Positions 3,136 through 22,661 of a stretch of 23,616 nucleotides of DNA are shown here, in pieces. A program made the translations under genes and the position numbers. This stretch comes from a virus. Location: the UHGV virus genome UHGV-1378242; one strand, 5' to 3'. Position 1 is the stretch's first letter. Each line of letters starts with the position of its first letter. Below the pieces are notes generated by a model that was not told where the DNA came from, searched no databases, and saw nothing but the letters and a program-made list of their open reading frames with translations.

Positions 3136-3329
3136 AGTCTAATCTCACCTTAAAAAAATGCCCGGCGAACCGGAAGCAATGAGTTATGCCTTCCGTGGCT
3201 GTACTGGTTTACAGCATGAAGTCATCGCAATGGCGTCCTGCTGTAAAAAGGGCGGTGATAGTCCTTCAAGGGAAACCATCACCGCCAAGCACCTGGAACT
3301 TCTGGCATCACGGTCCTTAGGCGTGATTC

Positions 3330-3406
3330 TGGCGTGGCATGCAGGATTCGAACCTGCGACCAACCGCTTAGAAGGCGGTTGCTCTGTCCAACTGAGCTAA
3401 TGCCAC
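3330..3406 (-). tRNA. tRNA-Arg (anticodon UCU, reads AGA), phage-borne argU-like
   Basis: Minus-strand 77 nt: GTGGCAT-TA-GCTC-AGTTGG-AC-AGAGC-A-ACCGC-CTTCTAA-GCGGT-TGGTC-GCAGG-TTCGAAT-CCTGC-ATGCCAC-G-CCA. Perfect 7-bp acceptor stem, D-loop, T-loop GGTTCGAATCC, anticodon loop CU-UCU-AA and encoded CCA. It resembles E. coli argU as I recall it, with compensatory stem changes. Confidence 0.9.
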
Positions 3407-3728
3407 AACGCTGAGAGCACTTAGCCTGTTAAGGCGCCACACTTTGTCGCGGCTCCATAAATGCTCTCATCGTTGTACCCTCGTCTCTTCCGAGGCGTCA
3501 CACCGAATCGCCGGGATGGTGAATCCCCGTGCGCGGAATAAAACCGCTCGACTTGCACATTCCGGCTACCTGGTTCGTTTGCCCGAGCAAGGGAGGGTGC
3601 CCCTTAAACGTATCCAGACCGCTATCGGCGCATGTGCCATACGCCGTACTGCTCAAAATAAAAGCTCACTCCACCTGTTCAATTTAACGACAAGCCAGTC
3701 AGGTTAGTAACCGGAATGAACTCTTTGG

Positions 3729-3744
3729 TTACCTGAAAGGTAAT
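3729..3744. promoter_or_regulatory. Operator-like inverted repeat TTACC-TGAAA-GGTAA (16-mer TTACCTGAAAGGTAAT)
   Basis: The same 16-mer recurs at 22646-22661. It sits in the 430-bp non-coding region between the tRNA and the portal operon, next to palindrome GGTTAGTAACC (3702-3712) and direct repeat GGTAATAATTT (3739-3749, 3801-3811). Confidence 0.45.
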
Positions 3745-13050: not shown

Positions 13051-15563
13051 TGCCTGTTGTTCCTACTACATCCGGACGCCAGGTGCAAAGTCGTGGAGTT
13101 CAGTCAGCAGGCTTGCAGACGTTTTCTCAGCCAGGTATTGGTAATGCTTTTGTTCGGGCAGGGACAGAGGCAATTGATGTTTTTGGTCAGGAAAAACAGC
13201 GTGCCAATATCGCTCTGGCTCAGGAGGCATCTCTTAACCTCAGTCAGATAAGCAGCGATCTGCTGAATAATCCTGAAACAGGATTGCTTAACCTGAAAGG
13301 GAAAAATGCTATTGGAAAAGGCCATGAGTATACGCAGCAGTTTGATGCTCAGGTCGAACAACTGGCTATGTCGCTGCCGGATGAACAGGCTCGTAATGCT
13401 TTCATGCAGCAGGCGCAGCAGCAGCGCATTCAGTTCACTACGCAGGCCGGGAGGTACGAGATAGGGCAAATAAATGCCTACGAAGAAGGCCAGTTTCAGG
13501 CTACGCTGCTGAACAATGGTAAAAATGCCGCAGCATTGTATGGCGACAACGCCGCATACGTATTGGCTAATAAGCAAACTTTCCAGCAAATTGAGGATTA
13601 CGGCATTGCACATGGCTGGAGTGACGAGCAAATCCAGGCCAAGAAAATCGAGTTTAAAGAAGCAACAGCAAAAGCAACTGCTCAAAATGCTATTGGAGCA
13701 AACTATCTTCAGGTAAGACAGCAAAACGGCGAGTTAAGCGATACTGCTGCTGGATCTCGCCGTGCTGTAGCAGATAGTGGCTCTTCCGATCGTACCCGCG
13801 GTATACGCAACAATAACCCCGGCAATCTTGAATACAGCAAAACTAATCCGTGGGTTGGGCAGACTGGTGATGATGGTCGCTTTGCCAAATTCGAAACCCC
13901 TGAACACGGTATTCGTGCATTAGGGCGGAACCTGATGTCGTATCAGCGGCAGGGTATTGATACCGTCAGCGAGATAATTAATCGCTGGGCACCGCCTACT
14001 GATAAAAATGACACTATGTCGTATATCAAAGCAGTGTGCGAACAACTTGGCGTTTCTGCTGATGAGCCTCTCGATGCATCAAATCCTGATACCCTGAAGG
14101 CGCTTTGTGCAGCCATTATCCATCATGAAAACGGTAGCCAGCCATACAGTGATCAGCAGTTAACTGCAGGTGTTAGTGCTGCGCTGGGGCTTTCTCAGCT
14201 ACCGACAAAAAATAAACGTTATACCGGTGTAGCCTGGTTCGATGCTTTAAGTGAATCAGATCAGGCCAGCGTGTTGCGACAGACTGATGCACTAGCCAGA
14301 CAACAGCAGGCTGAATATAAAACGATGCTCGACAGCCGGGTTCGCGATGCGACGGCTGCGTATATGCGTGGCGTTGAATTTCCTAACCCACCTGGTGAGG
14401 ATGATTTTATTGCAGCTTATGGAGTCAGAGAAGGAAACCTGCGATATACCGAGTTTAAGAATACGCAGATCGCCGGACAGTATATAGGCTCTTTCCGCAA
14501 CATGCCGACAAGCAGCATTACAGCATATGTTGAGCAATTACGCCCGGATACTGGTGAAACAGGGGAGGGGTATGCGGCACGCGCAGCTCTTTATGACAAC
14601 GTTGTTTCGGCTGCAAATCAGGTGATAAAGCAGCGGCAGTCGGATCCTGTGCAGTTCTCTCTTGCCTCCGGACAGACAAAGCCTATCGACATGAGCAATA
14701 AGGATAACTTTGGACAGAGCGTTGCCTTGCGTGCCGCTCAGGTCAGTGACCTTGCTAAGTCATATGGCACTCCACTGACGTTCTTTTCCAAAGACGAGGC
14801 CAATCAGATCGGTGTTTTCTTTCGTGATGCTCCAGTTTCCCAACAGGCAGCATATCTCGATACCATCAGGCAGAGCACTGGTGGTGGGCAGGTGTATATG
14901 TCAGCACTACAGCAGATCAGTGCCAACGCTCCATCTGCTGCCGTTGCCGGGATACTGATGGACAAGCCTGGTGGTATTTTGGCAGAAAAAAACTGGTTTA
15001 ATCCGGATGTTTCCGTGTCTCCTGAAACCGCTGCGCAGACAATTCTTGCTGGCGCGGCGGCTCGTAAAGGTACTGATGATGCGAAAGGTATTCCGATGCC
15101 TAAAGATGCTGATCTTCGCCTTGAGTTTTCTGACATGGTGAAGGATGCATTTGCTGGTGATGCTCAGGGGGCATCAATGGCATACGAGATCGCAAAGGAC
15201 TATTACGCTGGTGTGATGGCGAAAAAAGGCGTGATATCAGGTGAAATTGACACTGATATCTGGAAACAGGCTGTTAACGTAGCTACAGGTGGCGTGCATG
15301 ACTATAACGGAATGGGGAATGTCCTTTTGCCGTGGGGAATGTCTGCAGAGCAATTCGATAAGCAGGTTAATCAGGCTTGGAATGAACAAGTTGTCGGCAC
15401 CGGGATAAAAACACCGCCTGGTCAGTATGGTTTGCAAAGTTACGGCGATAGTCAGTATCTGGTGAAACTTGGTACTGGTTATCTGCTGAAAGATGATGGT
15501 TCTCCTGTTGTTCTTGATCTGACACAGAAGCGTCAGAGATTCTCCGGAGATATTCCGCAATGA
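13050..15563 (+). CDS. Putative internal core/ejection protein (837 aa) in the T7 gp15 position
   Basis: Coupled start (TGATG). Contains a conserved-looking block GIRNNNPGNLEY… (from about 13800) that I cannot assign to a family with confidence. Confidence 0.6.
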   Translation: MPVVPTTSGRQVQSRGVQSAGLQTFSQPGIGNAFVRAGTEAIDVFGQEKQRANIALAQEASLNLSQISSDLLNNPETGLLNLKGKNAIGKGHEYTQQFDAQVEQLAMSLPDEQARNAFMQQAQQQRIQFTTQAGRYEIGQINAYEEGQFQATLLNNGKNAAALYGDNAAYVLANKQTFQQIEDYGIAHGWSDEQIQAKKIEFKEATAKATAQNAIGANYLQVRQQNGELSDTAAGSRRAVADSGSSDRTRGIRNNNPGNLEYSKTNPWVGQTGDDGRFAKFETPEHGIRALGRNLMSYQRQGIDTVSEIINRWAPPTDKNDTMSYIKAVCEQLGVSADEPLDASNPDTLKALCAAIIHHENGSQPYSDQQLTAGVSAALGLSQLPTKNKRYTGVAWFDALSESDQASVLRQTDALARQQQAEYKTMLDSRVRDATAAYMRGVEFPNPPGEDDFIAAYGVREGNLRYTEFKNTQIAGQYIGSFRNMPTSSITAYVEQLRPDTGETGEGYAARAALYDNVVSAANQVIKQRQSDPVQFSLASGQTKPIDMSNKDNFGQSVALRAAQVSDLAKSYGTPLTFFSKDEANQIGVFFRDAPVSQQAAYLDTIRQSTGGGQVYMSALQQISANAPSAAVAGILMDKPGGILAEKNWFNPDVSVSPETAAQTILAGAAARKGTDDAKGIPMPKDADLRLEFSDMVKDAFAGDAQGASMAYEIAKDYYAGVMAKKGVISGEIDTDIWKQAVNVATGGVHDYNGMGNVLLPWGMSAEQFDKQVNQAWNEQVVGTGIKTPPGQYGLQSYGDSQYLVKLGTGYLLKDDGSPVVLDLTQKRQRFSGDIPQ

Positions 15564-17104
15564 GTTACTTTGGCCTTAATCCAGTAAACCAGAATCAGCA
15601 GCTTGACGAAGCAGCATCAAATCCAGCGGGATTTAACAGCGATGTTGGTTTTTTCGACAATGCTGTAGGAGCGGCATTGTCTGGTTTGTACTCCGGGCTG
15701 GTGGCAAAGCCAGACCAGTTGCTATGGGCAGGAATGGATAAAATCGTATCCCCGATTGCTCAGTTTGTTAACGAAAACACCTCGTTCAATGATACTTCAG
15801 TTTCATACATTGCCGAGCAGAGAAAACTAGCAGAGCAGCAGGTTAAGCGGTTGACGCCTGATGCCGCGACAACCGGAACCGCCGGGCAGGTTCTTTATGG
15901 GTTGTTCGATATGGGCGGACAGGCTGTTGTCGGTTCAGCATTAGCAGGGCCGATTGGTGGCGCAGCCGCAGTTACCTCTCTTCAGGGATTCTCTGAATTT
16001 GAGCGCCTGTCCGCTCAGGGTGTTGATTTCAGGACGGCGCAGGAAGCGGGATTAGTGCAGGGTATTACTGCTGGTGCCGGAACACTGATCCCTATGAGCC
16101 TCGGGTTACGTGCTGGTGGTGTCGGCAGATTTATGAACTCTCGCGGCGAGTCTACAAGCGCACCAAATTTTGCACCAGTTGATATCGATGCTGCACTGGC
16201 GGCGAATGCCGCTCATCATGCTGAAATTGATATTGCTCCCGGCGTTCCGATCAACGTGCTTTCGCGTAATTCGCACATTCAGGCTCTGCGAAAAGCCATG
16301 TCTGATGTTAGCCAGGGGAGACCTGTAGACGTTGCCAGCATTGTTGAGTCTGCATCTTTCAGTGAAATTCCTGGGCGCAAGAGTCTGCTGTCTCAGGCAG
16401 TTAATGAGGCTCTGTCATCTGTAGATGATGGAGTAACGGCGCGCGCTATAGAAAATCGGTTGCTTGAAGAACAGGCCGCGCAGCTTTTGCCGCGTGGCGA
16501 TAGACAGGTTTACCAGTCTGAAATCGCTAATAGCCAACGAATTATTGAAAATCTCACTGAACAGCGCGCACAAATTCTTGCAGAAGAGCCAACCGGTAGC
16601 GGTAAGGCTTTATCTCGTGCTCGATCAGATAAACAGGCCAGACTTCGCGATATTGACCAACGAATCCGGCAGGCACAAGAACGCTTGGAATTTTCCCGTA
16701 ACGCGTTGGCACCGCATGAGCCTGGCGGTCAGTTTTTTGAAGCTCGAGCAGAACTGGCACGGCGACAGCAGGCAGAAAGTGAACTTAATGCTCAGGCTGT
16801 TTCATTCTATAAAACAGCAGAGGTCAGGACGCCAGACGAAGTAGCTCCTTTTGAGCCCGGTAAGATATTGCAACAGACAGAACAAAAAATGATGTCAGAT
16901 CAGGCAGGAGATATTGATCTGCGCATAGCTGAAGACTCGCTGCTTGAATCACCTGACATGATAATCACCGTGCTGGATGATGATGGTAATCCACAATCGC
17001 GCAGTGCGCGTGAAGTACTGGATGAAACGAACAGGGAAAGTGAGCAGGCAATACAGGATTCCAGCCTGTTTGATGTCGCTGTGGCGTGTTTCTTGAGAGG
17101 TTAA
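15560..17104 (+). CDS. Putative internal virion/ejection protein (514 aa)
   Basis: Start overlaps the upstream stop (ATGA). Charged, coiled-coil-like C-terminal half. Confidence 0.55.
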   Translation: MSYFGLNPVNQNQQLDEAASNPAGFNSDVGFFDNAVGAALSGLYSGLVAKPDQLLWAGMDKIVSPIAQFVNENTSFNDTSVSYIAEQRKLAEQQVKRLTPDAATTGTAGQVLYGLFDMGGQAVVGSALAGPIGGAAAVTSLQGFSEFERLSAQGVDFRTAQEAGLVQGITAGAGTLIPMSLGLRAGGVGRFMNSRGESTSAPNFAPVDIDAALAANAAHHAEIDIAPGVPINVLSRNSHIQALRKAMSDVSQGRPVDVASIVESASFSEIPGRKSLLSQAVNEALSSVDDGVTARAIENRLLEEQAAQLLPRGDRQVYQSEIANSQRIIENLTEQRAQILAEEPTGSGKALSRARSDKQARLRDIDQRIRQAQERLEFSRNALAPHEPGGQFFEARAELARRQQAESELNAQAVSFYKTAEVRTPDEVAPFEPGKILQQTEQKMMSDQAGDIDLRIAEDSLLESPDMIITVLDDDGNPQSRSAREVLDETNRESEQAIQDSSLFDVAVACFLRG

Positions 17105-20110: not shown

Positions 20111-20269
20111 ACGAATGCCACCGCCGCCCGGGCGGGAATCCGCAGAACGCCCACCGCAGCGGGAGCCGTCAGCGGCGGTATCGCTGTCGTGCTGACAACG
20201 ACCGGCAAAGGCCTGAGTTGAAGCTACCAGAGACAACAAAACGAACAGTGCAGCAAATGCTTTTTTCAT
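20108..20269 (-). CDS. Secreted micro-protein (53 aa) with a classical signal peptide and two Cys in the mature part
   Basis: MKKAFAALFVLLSLVASTQAFA then GRCQHDSDTAADGSRCGGRSADSRPGGGGIR. Charged n-region, hydrophobic core and an AxA-type cleavage site. Host-like codons (CTG, CGT, GGT). Candidate own promoter TTGACG-N16-TATAGA upstream. The track shows it only as part of the longer 77-aa ORF 20108..20341. Confidence 0.45.
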   Translation of the reverse strand: MKKAFAALFVLLSLVASTQAFAGRCQHDSDTAADGSRCGGRSADSRPGGGGIR

Positions 20270-20340
20270 TGTGACATTTCCATCTATAAGCCACCTCAAT
20301 GTGGCGTCAATGAGTGTAGCACTGACTTTTGTTTCGTCCA

Positions 20341-20362
20341 CAAAAAAGCCCGCAGCGCGGGC
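20341..20362 (-). terminator. Rho-independent terminator for the minus-strand operon
   Basis: On the minus strand: stop TAA, then GCCCGC-GCT-GCGGGC, then TTTTTTG. Confidence 0.7.
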
Positions 20363-20911
20363 TTACTTTTCTTCAGGTTTGTTGTCTTCAGATTTCTTCT
20401 TGATGCTTGGTTTTTGTCTAAGAACGAAAATACCAGCCACTGCAACAACTGTACCGATCACTGTGCCAGCTAGAACTTCATGACCTGTTAAACCTAATAA
20501 TGTTGCACAAGCTACTGTAAAAATAGTTGCACTCAGGCCAAACCACTGCCCACGTTTATCTCTATTAATAGCCCCGTCAAGTGCCTTTTCCTCCATTTTC
20601 TGGCGGTGAGCAAACTCCTTCTCCGTCAGCTGGAAGATGCGTTCGGGGGCATCAGGTAAAATATCCTGATACCCGCGAAGCAGATAGGGGGGAGGAAGCG
20701 GACCCTGAAACGCATGGTGAGCGACAACTATCTCCTGAATTTCAGGGCGATCAAGAACTCTTGTGAAGGCATCTGGGTGTTGAATGATCTCGTTACTTAG
20801 CCCTTCCTCAACTTCCTCGAACTCAGTTTCTTCGTTATCACTTGGTTGCCCAATAGATTTTTGCATATTTGTCGAAGGACATTCCTTTAGCTTCTGGTTT
20901 TCCTCTTGCAT
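20363..20911 (-). CDS. Membrane protein (182 aa): acidic soluble N-terminal domain and two C-terminal TM helices; function unknown
   Basis: TM segments WFGLSATIFTVACATLLGL and VLAGTVIGTVVAVAGIFVL, then a Lys-rich tail. Its 5' end overlaps the upstream 108-aa gene out of frame by 74 nt, or 29 nt if Met16 at 20866 is the start. Confidence 0.6.
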   Translation of the reverse strand: MQEENQKLKECPSTNMQKSIGQPSDNEETEFEEVEEGLSNEIIQHPDAFTRVLDRPEIQEIVVAHHAFQGPLPPPYLLRGYQDILPDAPERIFQLTEKEFAHRQKMEEKALDGAINRDKRGQWFGLSATIFTVACATLLGLTGHEVLAGTVIGTVVAVAGIFVLRQKPSIKKKSEDNKPEEK

Positions 20912-21164
20912 TTGAGTTTTTCCCTGTCACTATTGCCCATTTTCCGCCAGCAGGCGCTGCAATTTTTTTTCCGTTCTTTACTATATATTCAGCATAAACA
21001 CGATTTTCTGACCGTCTGAGATCGTCTCCGACCATATTCATGTCTCTTGATATAACTTTGACGACAGAGTCTCGGTTTAAAGCCTTGGCATAGTTGGAGC
21101 CAGGAACGATACCCAAAGGGGTGCCAGACTCTATAGCCAGCTCCTTGACATATCTTCTGCTCAT
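20838..21164 (-). CDS. Hypothetical soluble protein (108 aa), first gene of the minus-strand operon
   Basis: ATG at 21164; the track's TTG start at 21179 is less likely. Basic, Lys/Gly-rich C-terminal half. Operator-like TTACC-N5-GGTAA lies in its leader. Confidence 0.55.
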   Translation of the reverse strand: MSRRYVKELAIESGTPLGIVPGSNYAKALNRDSVVKVISRDMNMVGDDLRRSENRVYAEYIVKNGKKIAAPAGGKWAIVTGKNSNARGKPEAKGMSFDKYAKIYWATK

Positions 21165-21185
21165 ATGAACCTCAACCAATCGACT

Positions 21186-21200
21186 TTACCAATCGGGTAA
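21186..21200. promoter_or_regulatory. Operator-like inverted repeat TTACC-AATCG-GGTAA
   Basis: Same arms as the 16-mer at 3729 and 22646. Sits 20-35 bp upstream of the 108-aa gene start. A TATAAT-like hexamer is at 21214-21219. Confidence 0.4.
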
Positions 21201-21242
21201 TTTTAAACATGAGTATAATGCTTTTAACTGCAACGAGTGTAA

Positions 21243-21277
21243 ACAATTATTGATAATTGTAGGCACATCCATGTGCC
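21243..21277. promoter_or_regulatory. Two adjacent palindromes, ACAATTAT-TG-ATAATTGT and GGCACAT-CC-ATGTGCC
   Basis: Both are perfect inverted repeats, located between the Bro-N gene stop (21286) and the promoter region of the 108-aa operon. Candidate operator and/or weak terminator. Confidence 0.35.
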
Positions 21278-21285
21278 GCCGCTCG

Positions 21286-21996
21286 TCAGAAGAACCCTGC
21301 CTTGTCGTTGATGTACTCCGCGTGGGTCTGGATATCACGCAGGCATTTGCTCACACCGACGATGTAGCAGAACATGGTGGTCAGCTCCGCCGCCGCGCCC
21401 GATACGTCATGCCCGTCTTCCTGTAACTGGTTCAGCAAATTCATCAGCAGTGAGTTCTCCGTCAGGCCGAGAACACCCGACGGCGAGTGAATCAAACTGC
21501 GGTAGCCGGGCTTCAGCGGGGCGCTGTAGGTTTTGTTCTCTATCTTCATCGCCTGCATTACTGCTGATGCTGTGGCGTTGGCTACCTGGTCGGCAACCAT
21601 CTTTATGCGTTCTTCCTGCGGGAGCGAGTTTTTAATGTAGCTTCCGGTGCGGCGGATCTGAGGAAGAACCTCACCTGTAACCCATTTACGAAAGCGGTAG
21701 GGGATAGTGCCTGGTGTCACTGCGTCGCGGCAGCGGAGGATCAGTGTGTAGAGGCCTGACTCGGAGATAATGTTGATCTCTTTTACTCGGCTGTCAAAAA
21801 TTGCACGATGTTCATGCCCTATGTTGAACATAGACCTTTCATCATCATCCAGTTTTTCAAGTGCTTGGGTGACGTTTTGGATACGCAGCGCACTACAAAC
21901 GTCTTGGGCTACAAACCATGGTTGGCCATCGATAATGATGGAACGGATAGGGTTAACAGATTCAAATTTGAAGATGGCAGTTTGAGCATTAGCCAT
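21286..21996 (-). CDS. Bro-N family antirepressor-like protein
   Basis: N-terminal FKFESVNPIRSIIIDGQPWFVAQDVCSALRI… fits the Bro-N pattern. Start taken at ATG 21996 (GGAG 9 nt upstream) rather than GTG 22011. The C-terminal ~65 aa are homologous to the 85-aa protein at 22312..22569. Confidence 0.8.
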   Translation of the reverse strand: MANAQTAIFKFESVNPIRSIIIDGQPWFVAQDVCSALRIQNVTQALEKLDDDERSMFNIGHEHRAIFDSRVKEINIISESGLYTLILRCRDAVTPGTIPYRFRKWVTGEVLPQIRRTGSYIKNSLPQEERIKMVADQVANATASAVMQAMKIENKTYSAPLKPGYRSLIHSPSGVLGLTENSLLMNLLNQLQEDGHDVSGAAAELTTMFCYIVGVSKCLRDIQTHAEYINDKAGFF

Positions 21997-22014
21997 GGTG
22001 GTTATCTCCACTTA

Positions 22015-22263: not shown

Positions 22264-22282
22264 ATTTACCGCAAAGGTAAAT
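22264..22282. promoter_or_regulatory. Inverted repeat ATTTACC-GCAAA-GGTAAAT nested in a longer hairpin
   Basis: Variant of the TTACC-N5-GGTAA motif, bracketed by the 8-bp inverted repeat AGGAGTGC…GCACTCCT (about 22244-22292). Confidence 0.4.
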
Positions 22283-22311: not shown

Positions 22312-22569
22312 TTATCTGGTTTGTTTTCGTAATTGTTCGGCACAATAGTCGAGATGTGTTTGCAGATCCTGCATAGACATCTGTGAGCTGGTGACGTAGT
22401 TAATCAGTGCAGTCAGTTCGGCAAGTGGGCCATCGACATTAAATCCATCCTTATCGAGATCCCGGAGTAATTTCATCAAGTGCGATCCCTCCACCAGTGA
22501 CCTGACGCCTCCCGGCGTGTGAATCCTTTCGGTAAATCCGTCTTCCAGTGGATAGTGATACTGCTGCAT
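22312..22569 (-). CDS. Small LexA-controlled protein (85 aa), antirepressor-like, paralogous to the C-terminal domain of the Bro-N protein
   Basis: ATG 22569 with GGAGAA upstream; the track ORF is N-terminally over-extended. Aligns with the Bro-N C-terminus on IH-P-GV, LM-LL, AELT and QTH-Y. A LexA box lies 20-40 bp upstream. Confidence 0.6.
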   Translation of the reverse strand: MQQYHYPLEDGFTERIHTPGGVRSLVEGSHLMKLLRDLDKDGFNVDGPLAELTALINYVTSSQMSMQDLQTHLDYCAEQLRKQTR

Positions 22570-22644: not shown

Positions 22645-22661
22645 ATTACCTGAAAGGTAAT
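22645..22661. promoter_or_regulatory. Operator-like inverted repeat ATTACC-TGAAA-GGTAAT
   Basis: Contains the 16-mer TTACCTGAAAGGTAAT identical to 3729-3744. About 40 bp upstream of the LexA box. A half-site-like CAGGTAAT follows at about 22706-22713. Confidence 0.45.

Follow-up and report, generated by a model that had tools for sequence, protein, structure and literature searches.

A conserved out-of-frame gene pair, coding for a small basic protein and a DUF2335 membrane protein, in a swappable slot of a Uetakevirus-type phage

The window considered here, by which is meant the whole stretch of 23,616 nucleotides from virus genome UHGV-1378242, belongs to a short-tailed, temperate phage of the Uetakevirus (epsilon15/phiV10-like) type. 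On its minus strand lies a self-contained accessory cassette of about 0.9 kb that codes for two separate proteins: a small basic protein (ORF1) and, beginning out of frame within the 3' end of the ORF1 gene, an inner-membrane protein with the DUF2335 domain (ORF2). Over this region Escherichia phages EC.W1-9 and vB_EcoP_ZX5 match the window at 99.4-99.5% identity, and prophages of complete E. coli genomes match it at 100%; prophages of this kind integrate beside guaA, as is also seen in the genomes studied here (PMC9782041). Large internal/ejection-protein genes flank the cassette on one side and a Bro-N antirepressor gene on the other, with the tailspike gene downstream. That the locus holds two coupled genes which form a conserved module is nearly certain; the functional part of the explanation developed below is the uncertain one.

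The cassette and its two genes

An earlier note on this DNA had described two out-of-frame reading frames overlapping by 74 nucleotides, or by 29 when counted from an alternative methionine (the internal ATG at 20866), and had taken their products for a 108-residue soluble and a 182-residue membrane protein. All of these features lie where the note placed them, on the minus strand, and the products answer to their description, there being no hydrophobic segment in ORF1 and two in ORF2 (Table 1). The terminator that it saw after the pair is likewise real, an intrinsic terminator at 20346-20364 followed by a T-run; its 8-bp stem has 6 G-C pairs and a 3-nt loop, and the stop codon of ORF2 lies inside the stem.

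Table 1. Features of the two-gene cassette, with positions in the window
Feature	Position	Strand	Basis or remark
ORF1	20838..21164	-	ATG at 21164, TGA at 20838-20840; 108 aa; dN/dS, PHROG match, Shine-Dalgarno
ORF1 Shine-Dalgarno GAGG	21170-21173	-	sequence
ORF1 conserved core, residues 10-56, motifs AIESGTPLGI.P.S.Y and DM..VG.DLRR	20997..21137	-	hhalign, PHROG, alignments
ORF1 C-terminal motif FDKYAKIYWATK, residues 97-108	20841..20876	-	inside overlap; kept in enterobacterial long forms (alignments)
ORF2, DUF2335 inner-membrane protein (phrog_3996)	20363..20911	-	ATG at 20911, TAA at 20363-20365; 182 aa; Pfam, PHROG, RefSeq
DUF2335 Pfam domain, ORF2 residues 73-122	20546..20695	-	Pfam, alignment
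ORF2 membrane hairpin, residues ~123-166, two hydrophobic helices	20414..20545	-	hydropathy, charge, AlphaFold
ORF1/ORF2 overlap, 74 nt, ORF2 +1 relative to ORF1	20838..20911	-	ORF listing
Alternative ORF2 start Met16, from ORF1 Tyr-Ala codons (TAT GCA)	20864..20866	-	sequence, lineage comparison
AGGGA, Shine-Dalgarno-like, 8 nt upstream of ORF2 Met1	20921..20925	-	duplex -5.1 kcal/mol with 16S rRNA 3' end
Intrinsic terminator	20339..20364	-	stem-loop 20346-20364, T-run 20339-20345; left cassette boundary
Inverted repeat TTACC-N5-GGTAA, abuts -10 hexamer	21186..21200	.	recurrence, copy count
Proximal promoter-like site TTAAAA-16-TAAAAT	21200..21227	-	sequence scan
Upstream promoter-like site TTTACA-17-CATTAT	21215..21243	-	conserved in E. 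coli, Cronobacter, Enterobacter cassette types
Palindrome ACAATTAT-TG-ATAATTGT	21243..21260	.	adjoins upstream -35

By its profile match ORF2 is a member of DUF2335 (PF10097): it scores 57.2 bits (Pfam cutoff 25; E = 1.6e-15) over the full 50-position profile, and it matches phrog_3996, a PHROG labelled 'membrane protein', at 8.2e-60. It carries the DUF2335 motif GPLPPP...H-R...RGQ, and in the alignment residues G70, P71, L72, P73, P75, Y81, H102 and R120 are invariant. After the conserved domain come two hydrophobic segments, with centres near residues 132 and 155 and K/R-rich stretches at both ends, and the AlphaFold model (all-helical, pLDDT 63) has helices at residues 88-141 and 145-165. 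The model helices together with the charge distribution predict an N-in/C-in hairpin and an N-terminal, helical, cytoplasmic domain of about 120 amino acids; residues 1-45 are acidic (pI 4.1). Purifying selection on ORF2 is evident in dN values of 0.02-0.10, at dS values that are high or saturated. The model has no structural match in the Protein Data Bank (PDB) and finds only two unnamed proteins in the viral structure set; its best holin-like fold match has E = 9.5. No function for DUF2335/PF10097 was found in the literature, nor for the families PHROG 3996 and PHROG 10654. The 'DUF2335 phospholipase' of two papers on type VI secretion seems to us a slip for another DUF and was discarded; the accession PF10097 is named in just one paper, which is unrelated.

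ORF1 is a soluble, basic and largely disordered protein (pI 10.0, with no hydrophobic segment by hydropathy and charge analysis). Along its full length it matches phrog_10654 at 9.5e-66, a PHROG without assigned function. It has no match in Pfam, NCBIfam, PADLOC or the PDB sequences, and 16 members of its family, scanned against Pfam and by profile search of the PDB sequences, gave chance-level matches only; both proteins of the cassette, run against PADLOC-DB 2.0, yielded a single chance-level match at 0.039, to a methyltransferase model. An exhaustive search of 1.84 billion representatives with the ORF1 profile returned just 12 proteins, and the AlphaFold model built on the 12-sequence alignment (pLDDT 45) is too poor for docking. 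The alignment gives the family a layout in which the N-terminal core is followed by a basic linker of varying length and by a C-terminal motif, F-x-K/R-Y-A-x-L-Y-x-x-T-K. Outside the overlap ORF1 is under purifying selection, with dN of 0.22-0.48, dS of 1.2-1.7 and dN/dS of 0.18-0.33, and it evolves 4-10 times faster than ORF2. A resemblance, by eye, of its G-T-P-L-G-I-V-P...ALN stretch to the MazE/AbrB looped-hinge motif was set aside: the ALN is not kept in the family and no search supports the assignment.

A pair conserved across distant bacteria

An intact ORF1 followed by a +1 ORF2 with its internal ATG is present at 56 loci, 23 of them distinct, the sole exception being a locus with a broken ORF2; because the same arrangement recurs in this way, the pair is, on comparative grounds, no chance overlap of reading frames. 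Searches with tblastn placed an ORF1 homologue (48-55% identity) upstream of every DUF2335 gene of about 80% identity that was fetched from Cronobacter, Enterobacter and Klebsiella, including homologues that had not been called as genes. A scan of genome contigs with the ORF2 profile gave two loci only.

The arrangement extends much farther. At DUF2335 loci of distant viral contigs (28-46% identity) a small ORF of 60-100 amino acids lies upstream in 25 of 26 cases. Its frame relation to the DUF2335 gene is again +1 in 21 of the 25 pairs, 20 of which overlap by 11-140 nt and one of which has a 1-nt gap; the remaining four have the DUF2335 gene in frame +2, either overlapping by 4 nt or separated by 2. 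Profile comparison of ORF1 residues 10-56 with these distant small partners (hhalign, A2 versus A6) gives a probability of 95.4% and E = 1.8e-8 over 47 columns, and the small ORF of one distant locus (L100) matches phrog_10654, the PHROG of ORF1, at 2.4e-5. The motifs of the small partners, GS.l.l.P..Y and DW/M..VG.D, are present in the partner encoded in the window, and the DUF2335 gene starts at or inside the 3' end of its partner. Independent annotations record the same pair in Leptospira phage LE1 (85-aa partner, 29-nt overlap), Streptococcus Javan433 (68 aa, 17 nt) and Arthrobacter phage Gusanita (66 aa, 11 nt), and it is present but unannotated in Klebsiella RAH1 and in a Methylococcaceae genome. 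These alignments make ORF1 the long, enterobacterial form of a partner that is widespread, about 65 amino acids in size and without a Pfam family. The sources found do not describe a small upstream partner as an obligatory companion of DUF2335 genes, and its recognition appears to be new here.

Two genes or one?

The earlier note had also considered that the two frames might be one gene, coding for a protein of about 275 residues. In this alternative a single gene of about 266 codons would be read through a +1 programmed frameshift, or would have been split by a sequencing error or by mutation (a pseudogene). A run of five A residues (20917-20921; GGG AAA AAC) just before the ORF2 ATG, on which tRNA-Lys could re-pair after a +1 slip, lends the idea some plausibility, as does a database protein, P0004, that is an ORF1-ORF2 fusion. 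P0004 is, however, the sole fused protein in a collection of 5.8 billion and comes from one 1.4-kb read-assembly contig with a 3-nt deletion in the A8 run of ORF1, a 1-nt deletion in the A5 run and another frameshift downstream; its siblings P0005 and P0006 carry other A8 indels, and by their positions the differences among the three are homopolymer errors. Apart from the error-ridden P0004, no fusion of the two was present in the loci and proteins that were examined.

A sequencing error in the window is contradicted by the occurrence of the identical ORF2 in 2,240 indexed blocks of public assemblies, with the 108-aa gene and the same overlap in all ten of the places displayed, among differing neighbours. 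The cassette is carried by 72 of 5,426 complete E. coli genomes, where RefSeq annotates two genes with a 74-nt overlap. For a programmed event the slippery heptamers of the classical -1 type, which the earlier note had in mind, are irrelevant because a +1 shift is needed to join the frames, and across 17 lineages no conserved homopolymer or slippery site is present in the window within which the shift would have to occur. In Arthrobacter and Streptococcus phages that shift window is no more than 17-23 nt long; the A5 run is missing from L041, L048, L034, Streptococcus and Arthrobacter; in several lineages a stop closes the ORF2 frame 0-3 codons ahead of its start; and in four lineages ORF2 is in the +2 frame or a gap replaces the overlap. 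Folding of the RNA over the overlap (20820-20960) reveals no structure (z = -0.18), and the tail of ORF1 beyond the presumed shift site is conserved as protein. In every lineage examined the start codon of ORF2 lies inside or beside the 3' end of ORF1. Known frameshifting pairs, of the prfB (+1) and phage G/GT (-1) types, share with the cassette the overlapping frames with the downstream one out of frame; the cassette differs in that a conserved shift site, a stimulatory structure and an in-frame stop where the frame would shift are all lacking, and in that ORF2 has its own start in all lineages. A single gene is thus barely conceivable, and with identity among independent assemblies, purifying selection, no shift site and an artefactual fusion protein, the frameshift, sequencing-error and pseudogene readings are rejected. 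By the same comparisons both ORFs are real, selected and separately translated genes.

The homopolymers of ORF1 (T8 on the plus strand, read as A8 in ORF1, at 20963-20970, and A5 at 20917-20921) account for several truncated or fused 'proteins' of read assemblies. Complete genomes give no sign of true phase variation at these runs.

The overlap and the start of ORF2

The gene pair stands, then, as two overlapping reading frames, and the start of the second is of particular interest. Met1, at 20911, is the start chosen by RefSeq; it is kept in the E. coli, Cronobacter, Klebsiella, Enterobacter and Salmonella lineages and is preceded by the Shine-Dalgarno-like AGGGA of Table 1. Met16, from which the closest such sequence is 15 nt away, is the sole ORF2 start in the Rahnella and L028 lineages, while in Klebsiella, Enterobacter and Salmonella the homologous tyrosine codon is TAC, and so no ATG arises at that position. 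Met1 is favoured as the start in the window, and both may be in use. Over the lineages as a group the start of ORF2 thus has no fixed codon, yet it lies constantly within the last 10-140 nt of the partner gene, a geometry of the kind that would be expected for translational coupling.

Selection within the overlap appears to act on the ORF1 peptide. In close pairs dN/dS is 0.28-0.30 in the ORF1 frame against 1.1-3.5 in the ORF2 frame, over 25 codons only; by this measure the C-terminal peptide of ORF1 would be the selected product of the overlap, and about the first 25 residues of ORF2 would be passengers. Comparison of the window with the locus L041 gives a dS of 1.2 for ORF1 and 0.2 for ORF2, which indicates that alleles of the two genes recombine.

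A swappable slot and mobile cargo

In comparison with TL-2011b and phiv142-3, which are sister phages, the homology has breakpoints at 20363-20375 and about 21238-21263, and different genes fill the interval between these points. In TL-2011b the slot holds a 59-aa gene that overlaps a YafO-family toxin gene (YafO_toxin), and in phiv142-3 a 55-aa gene and what seems to be an unannotated ORF of about 146 amino acids. The cassette is, on this comparison, exchanged as a unit with the other cassettes of the slot, and is accessory, mobile cargo. Elsewhere the module is found in varied company. In a Rahnella lambdoid prophage it comes directly behind the gene for antiterminator Q, in phage-plasmids 10 nt past rep, in Streptococcus prophages behind the lysin gene, and in an actinophage between a pair of integrase genes. 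Other copies lie beside tail genes at the end of a prophage, between genes for tail and baseplate, by insertion sequences in Enterobacter and Klebsiella, and adjoining what we read from its sequence as an apparent Abi-like gene. It is also found on plasmids.

The ORF of about 146 amino acids in phiv142-3 (L003, about 3165-3602, minus strand) begins with TTG past the 55-aa gene and has no Pfam match; the deposited annotation of phiv142-3 has a 52-aa ORF there in another frame.

Promoters and inverted repeats

Two promoter-like sites precede ORF1, and the -10 hexamer of the proximal one is fused to an inverted repeat, TTACC-N5-GGTAA, such that the last T of the -10 is the first T of the repeat (TAAAAT|TACC). 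The same junction is present in L016, L017, L026, L089, TL-2011b and phiv142-3. It precedes the module at the Klebsiella, Rahnella and L089-type loci, which have otherwise unrelated promoters, and also the different cassettes that TL-2011b and phiv142-3 carry in the slot. The window has 6 copies of the repeat (5 exact and 1 with one mismatch) where 0.33 would be expected; they lie at 573-587, 591-605, 3729-3743, 21186-21200, 22266-22280 and 22646-22660, and fusion with a -10-like hexamer is usual. With an identical cassette, the MS15052 prophage of E. coli has 14 sites (10 exact). There are two on each side of a 194-aa HTH repressor-like gene, and further ones lie ahead of the genes for terminase, replication, integrase and antirepressor and of the 85-aa gene. 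The host DNA fetched on the flanks of this prophage (about 17 kb) has no exact copy.

This distribution suggests that the repeat is an immunity operator of the phage, and that the cassette, like the neighbouring antirepressor gene, is wired to the lysis-lysogeny switch. In ZX5, overexpression of the corresponding repressor (ORF21) cuts the transcripts of holin and endolysin by more than 99.9% (PMC9782041). An operator of the phage repressor is in conflict, however, with the situation in other prophages: a 13.8-kb stretch of the Rahnella lambdoid prophage has a single copy (L146, 9637-9651), the one at the module, even though it includes that prophage's own CI/Cro region, and L022, L017 and L089-L099 likewise have a single repeat at the module promoter and none in their own immunity regions. 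Candidates for binding the repeat are therefore threefold, the phage repressor, ORF1 and a host factor.

The second of these candidates leads to an alternative account of the whole module as a regulatory one, in which ORF1 would bind DNA at TTACC-N5-GGTAA and ORF2 would serve as a membrane tether or sensor, the pair modulating lysis-lysogeny or silencing incoming phages with the same operator. The basic character of ORF1, the repeat abutting the module promoter -10 in at least five unrelated promoter backgrounds, and the solitary copy of the Rahnella prophage would all be in keeping with such a role. The account is nonetheless quite unlikely, given that TL-2011b and phiv142-3 are without ORF1 and still have the repeat at the slot promoter and elsewhere, that copies cluster round the phage's own HTH repressor gene, that the repeat is missing upstream of modules in phage-plasmids and distant phyla, and that ORF1 matches no DNA-binding family. 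Autoregulation of the kind practised by antitoxins invites the same comparison: the conserved repeat is at the module promoter, but it is also phage-wide and present in relatives lacking ORF1. The repeat appears to resemble the MqsA palindrome, ACCT-N3-AGGT. A domain shared by the first genes of all slot cassettes was also considered as its binder and was dropped, the 59-aa and 55-aa genes of TL-2011b and phiv142-3 being unlike ORF1 by eye.

The operator-like palindrome that the earlier note had seen upstream of the pair is the other inverted sequence of this region (21243-21260). It is real. By our estimate about 0.75 palindromes of the 8+8 form are expected by chance in 1.2 kb, so that such a sequence is not rare; this one, however, is identical in L001, L004-L014, L041 and L042, even between lineages whose ORF1 synonymous sites are saturated, and partly altered in the Cronobacter and Enterobacter types. 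TTACC-N5-GGTAA is the better candidate for an operator. As a Fur box the palindrome is a poor match (9/19 by eye), and this assignment was abandoned; it contains an IHF-consensus string.

What might the module do?

A coupled two-gene module for exclusion or abortive infection is one of the possibilities that the earlier note had offered. The module itself is borne out, the two genes being real and always adjacent, with the start of the second inside the 3' end of ORF1, and the pair having its own promoter region and terminator in a swappable slot; its role is something that we infer from context and analogy. We give an even chance to the explanation as a whole, that of a coupled, conserved, two-gene membrane conflict module. 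In this explanation the partner would be made first, and ribosomes ending ORF1 would initiate ORF2 and so fix the ratio of the two proteins. ORF1 might then bind the cytoplasmic part of ORF2, the N-terminus of which is acidic. ORF2 would be the effector, which disturbs the inner membrane or blocks a membrane step, and the small, fast-evolving ORF1 its regulator, neutraliser or sensor, much as toxin-antitoxin or abortive-infection pairs are organised. Expression would be tied to the regulatory circuit of the phage through TTACC-N5-GGTAA at the promoter. A conflict role, whether resembling abortive infection or toxin-antitoxin action or consisting in exclusion, would fit the context described above.

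More broadly, and at rather less than even probability, the small DW-motif protein and DUF2335 would make up an undescribed two-component system of phages, prophages and plasmids in Proteobacteria, Spirochaetes, Firmicutes and Actinobacteria, with a conserved +1 overlap that enforces co-translation as its hallmark, and would represent a new membrane-acting family of abortive-infection, toxin-antitoxin or exclusion systems. It belongs to this reading, and is to be taken just as tentatively, that in the enterobacterial version the partner acquired a disordered linker together with a peptide at its C-terminus, which is overprinted on the start of the membrane-protein gene.

Comparison with type II toxin-antitoxin systems, of which the 59-aa and YafO pair of TL-2011b is an example from the same slot, brings out a number of likenesses. 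A small first gene overlaps a larger second one, the two are co-oriented under their own promoter and terminator, the same inverted repeat lies at the start of transcription, the pairs are mobile among prophages and plasmids, and the first gene is the faster-evolving one; the YafO cassette and the one in the window literally share both their slot and their promoter architecture, with its -10 fused to TTACC-N5-GGTAA. The second protein here is, in contrast, a 182-aa membrane protein and no cytoplasmic enzyme, and there is no homology to toxin or antitoxin families. In phage lambda, the soluble RexA (279 aa) is encoded upstream of RexB, a small inner-membrane protein with four transmembrane helices, in a temperate phage. 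The soluble-upstream and membrane-downstream logic of RexAB is shared by the pair described here, to which a conserved effector with a variable partner would also apply; it differs in having no sequence similarity to RexAB (no PADLOC match), a partner core of only about 65 amino acids and a membrane protein with a large cytoplasmic domain. By these analogies the module would work like type II toxin-antitoxin or two-component abortive-infection systems, rather than being a demonstrated member of either class.

Several observations weigh against a conflict function. Neither protein matches a known toxin, antitoxin, abortive-infection or exclusion family in PADLOC, Pfam, NCBIfam or the PDB, and the function itself is put forward by inference. 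Translational coupling is read from the geometry of the genes, and binding between ORF1 and ORF2 is a guess, the ORF1 model being unusable. With a repeat like a repressor operator at its promoter, the cassette might be silent in lysogens, which would fit a role in the lytic cycle better than prophage defence. Finally, in a study of the whole phage vB_EcoP_ZX5, which has a nearly identical cassette, lysogeny was without growth, stress or virulence phenotype (PMC9782041).

The slot directly after the ejection/internal-protein genes, beside the antirepressor gene, is the equivalent of the sieA/immI position of P22 (PMC10883804). This raises superinfection exclusion at the inner membrane, in which ORF2, itself a small inner-membrane protein, would with ORF1 as cytoplasmic cofactor block entry of the DNA of incoming phages in the manner of P22 SieA or T4 Imm. 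The likeness lies in the small size and inner-membrane location of the protein and in the place of its gene, which in a short-tailed temperate phage falls between those for ejection proteins and the antirepressor/tailspike region (PMC10883804). SieA, however, is a single protein of 162-164 amino acids (about 160), with three predicted transmembrane helices and no long cytoplasmic domain, which acts alone and is specific for P22-like ejection proteins, and the described features of SieA set it apart (PMC10883804). ORF2 has two C-terminal helices, a soluble domain of about 120 amino acids that is predicted to be cytoplasmic, a different PHROG and an obligatory partner, the DUF2335 module being always of two genes. 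The module is moreover found in Gram-positive, spirochaete and actinobacterial phages of differing tail types, which argues for a general mechanism and not one specific to injection. Exclusion of this sort is therefore an unlikely explanation.

A further possibility is that the module serves the phage's own physiology rather than conflict, in the timing of lysis, the membrane anchoring of replication or assembly, or early takeover of the host. The promoter operator is common to lytic promoters (terminase and replication), the module is near lysis or terminase genes in some phages, and the topology of class II holins resembles a two-helix N-in/C-in hairpin. ORF2, however, is not encoded with an endolysin in a lysis cassette, the phage's own holin/endolysin genes lying about 5 kb away, past the tailspike gene. 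The position of the module is not fixed in any phage type, sister phages do without it and have unrelated cassettes in the slot, and it occurs on plasmids and by insertion sequences outside phages. A physiological role is, in view of these facts, decidedly improbable.

Neighbouring features

Next to the Bro-N antirepressor gene (21289-22011, minus strand) lies an 85-aa gene (22315-22569, minus strand) whose product aligns with the final 74 residues of the antirepressor at 42% identity (E = 1e-19). It is a stand-alone copy of the C-terminal domain of that protein, and has a promoter and a TTACC repeat of its own. Nine nucleotides past the antirepressor stop, at the right edge of the swappable cassette, is a G+C-rich hairpin, GGCACATCCATGTGCC (21262-21277), which has no T-run and is preserved in related loci through base changes on both arms. 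Directly past the cassette terminator lies a 53-aa ORF (20183-20341, minus strand) that begins MKKAFAALFVLLSLVASTQAFA and has a signal-peptide-like N-terminus; it has no Pfam match, and is kept in nearly all Uetakevirus loci regardless of the cassette in the slot. A tRNA-Arg gene (anticodon TCT; 3330-3406, minus strand) is located between a Gp49-family gene and the portal gene. The internal-protein ORF at 15560-17104 (plus strand) has 514 amino acids in the window and 600 in the MS15052 prophage and other loci, which, with coordinate offsets, suggests a difference of about 258 nt or another start.

Significance

Databases already list the two genes as hypotheticals. New here is the recognition of the partner family, of the out-of-frame coupling that is conserved in distantly related bacteria, and of the behaviour of the pair as cargo. 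Annotation pipelines often miss such gene pairs or take them for frameshifts, and several of the loci lack a gene call for the partner. The long, conserved, out-of-frame overlap offers a natural case for the study of translational coupling and of overprinting. The recognition of the pair turns the DUF2335 'hypothetical protein' into a concrete, clonable, two-gene candidate for a new phage-conflict system, of which an isolated phage, vB_EcoP_ZX5, bears a nearly identical copy.

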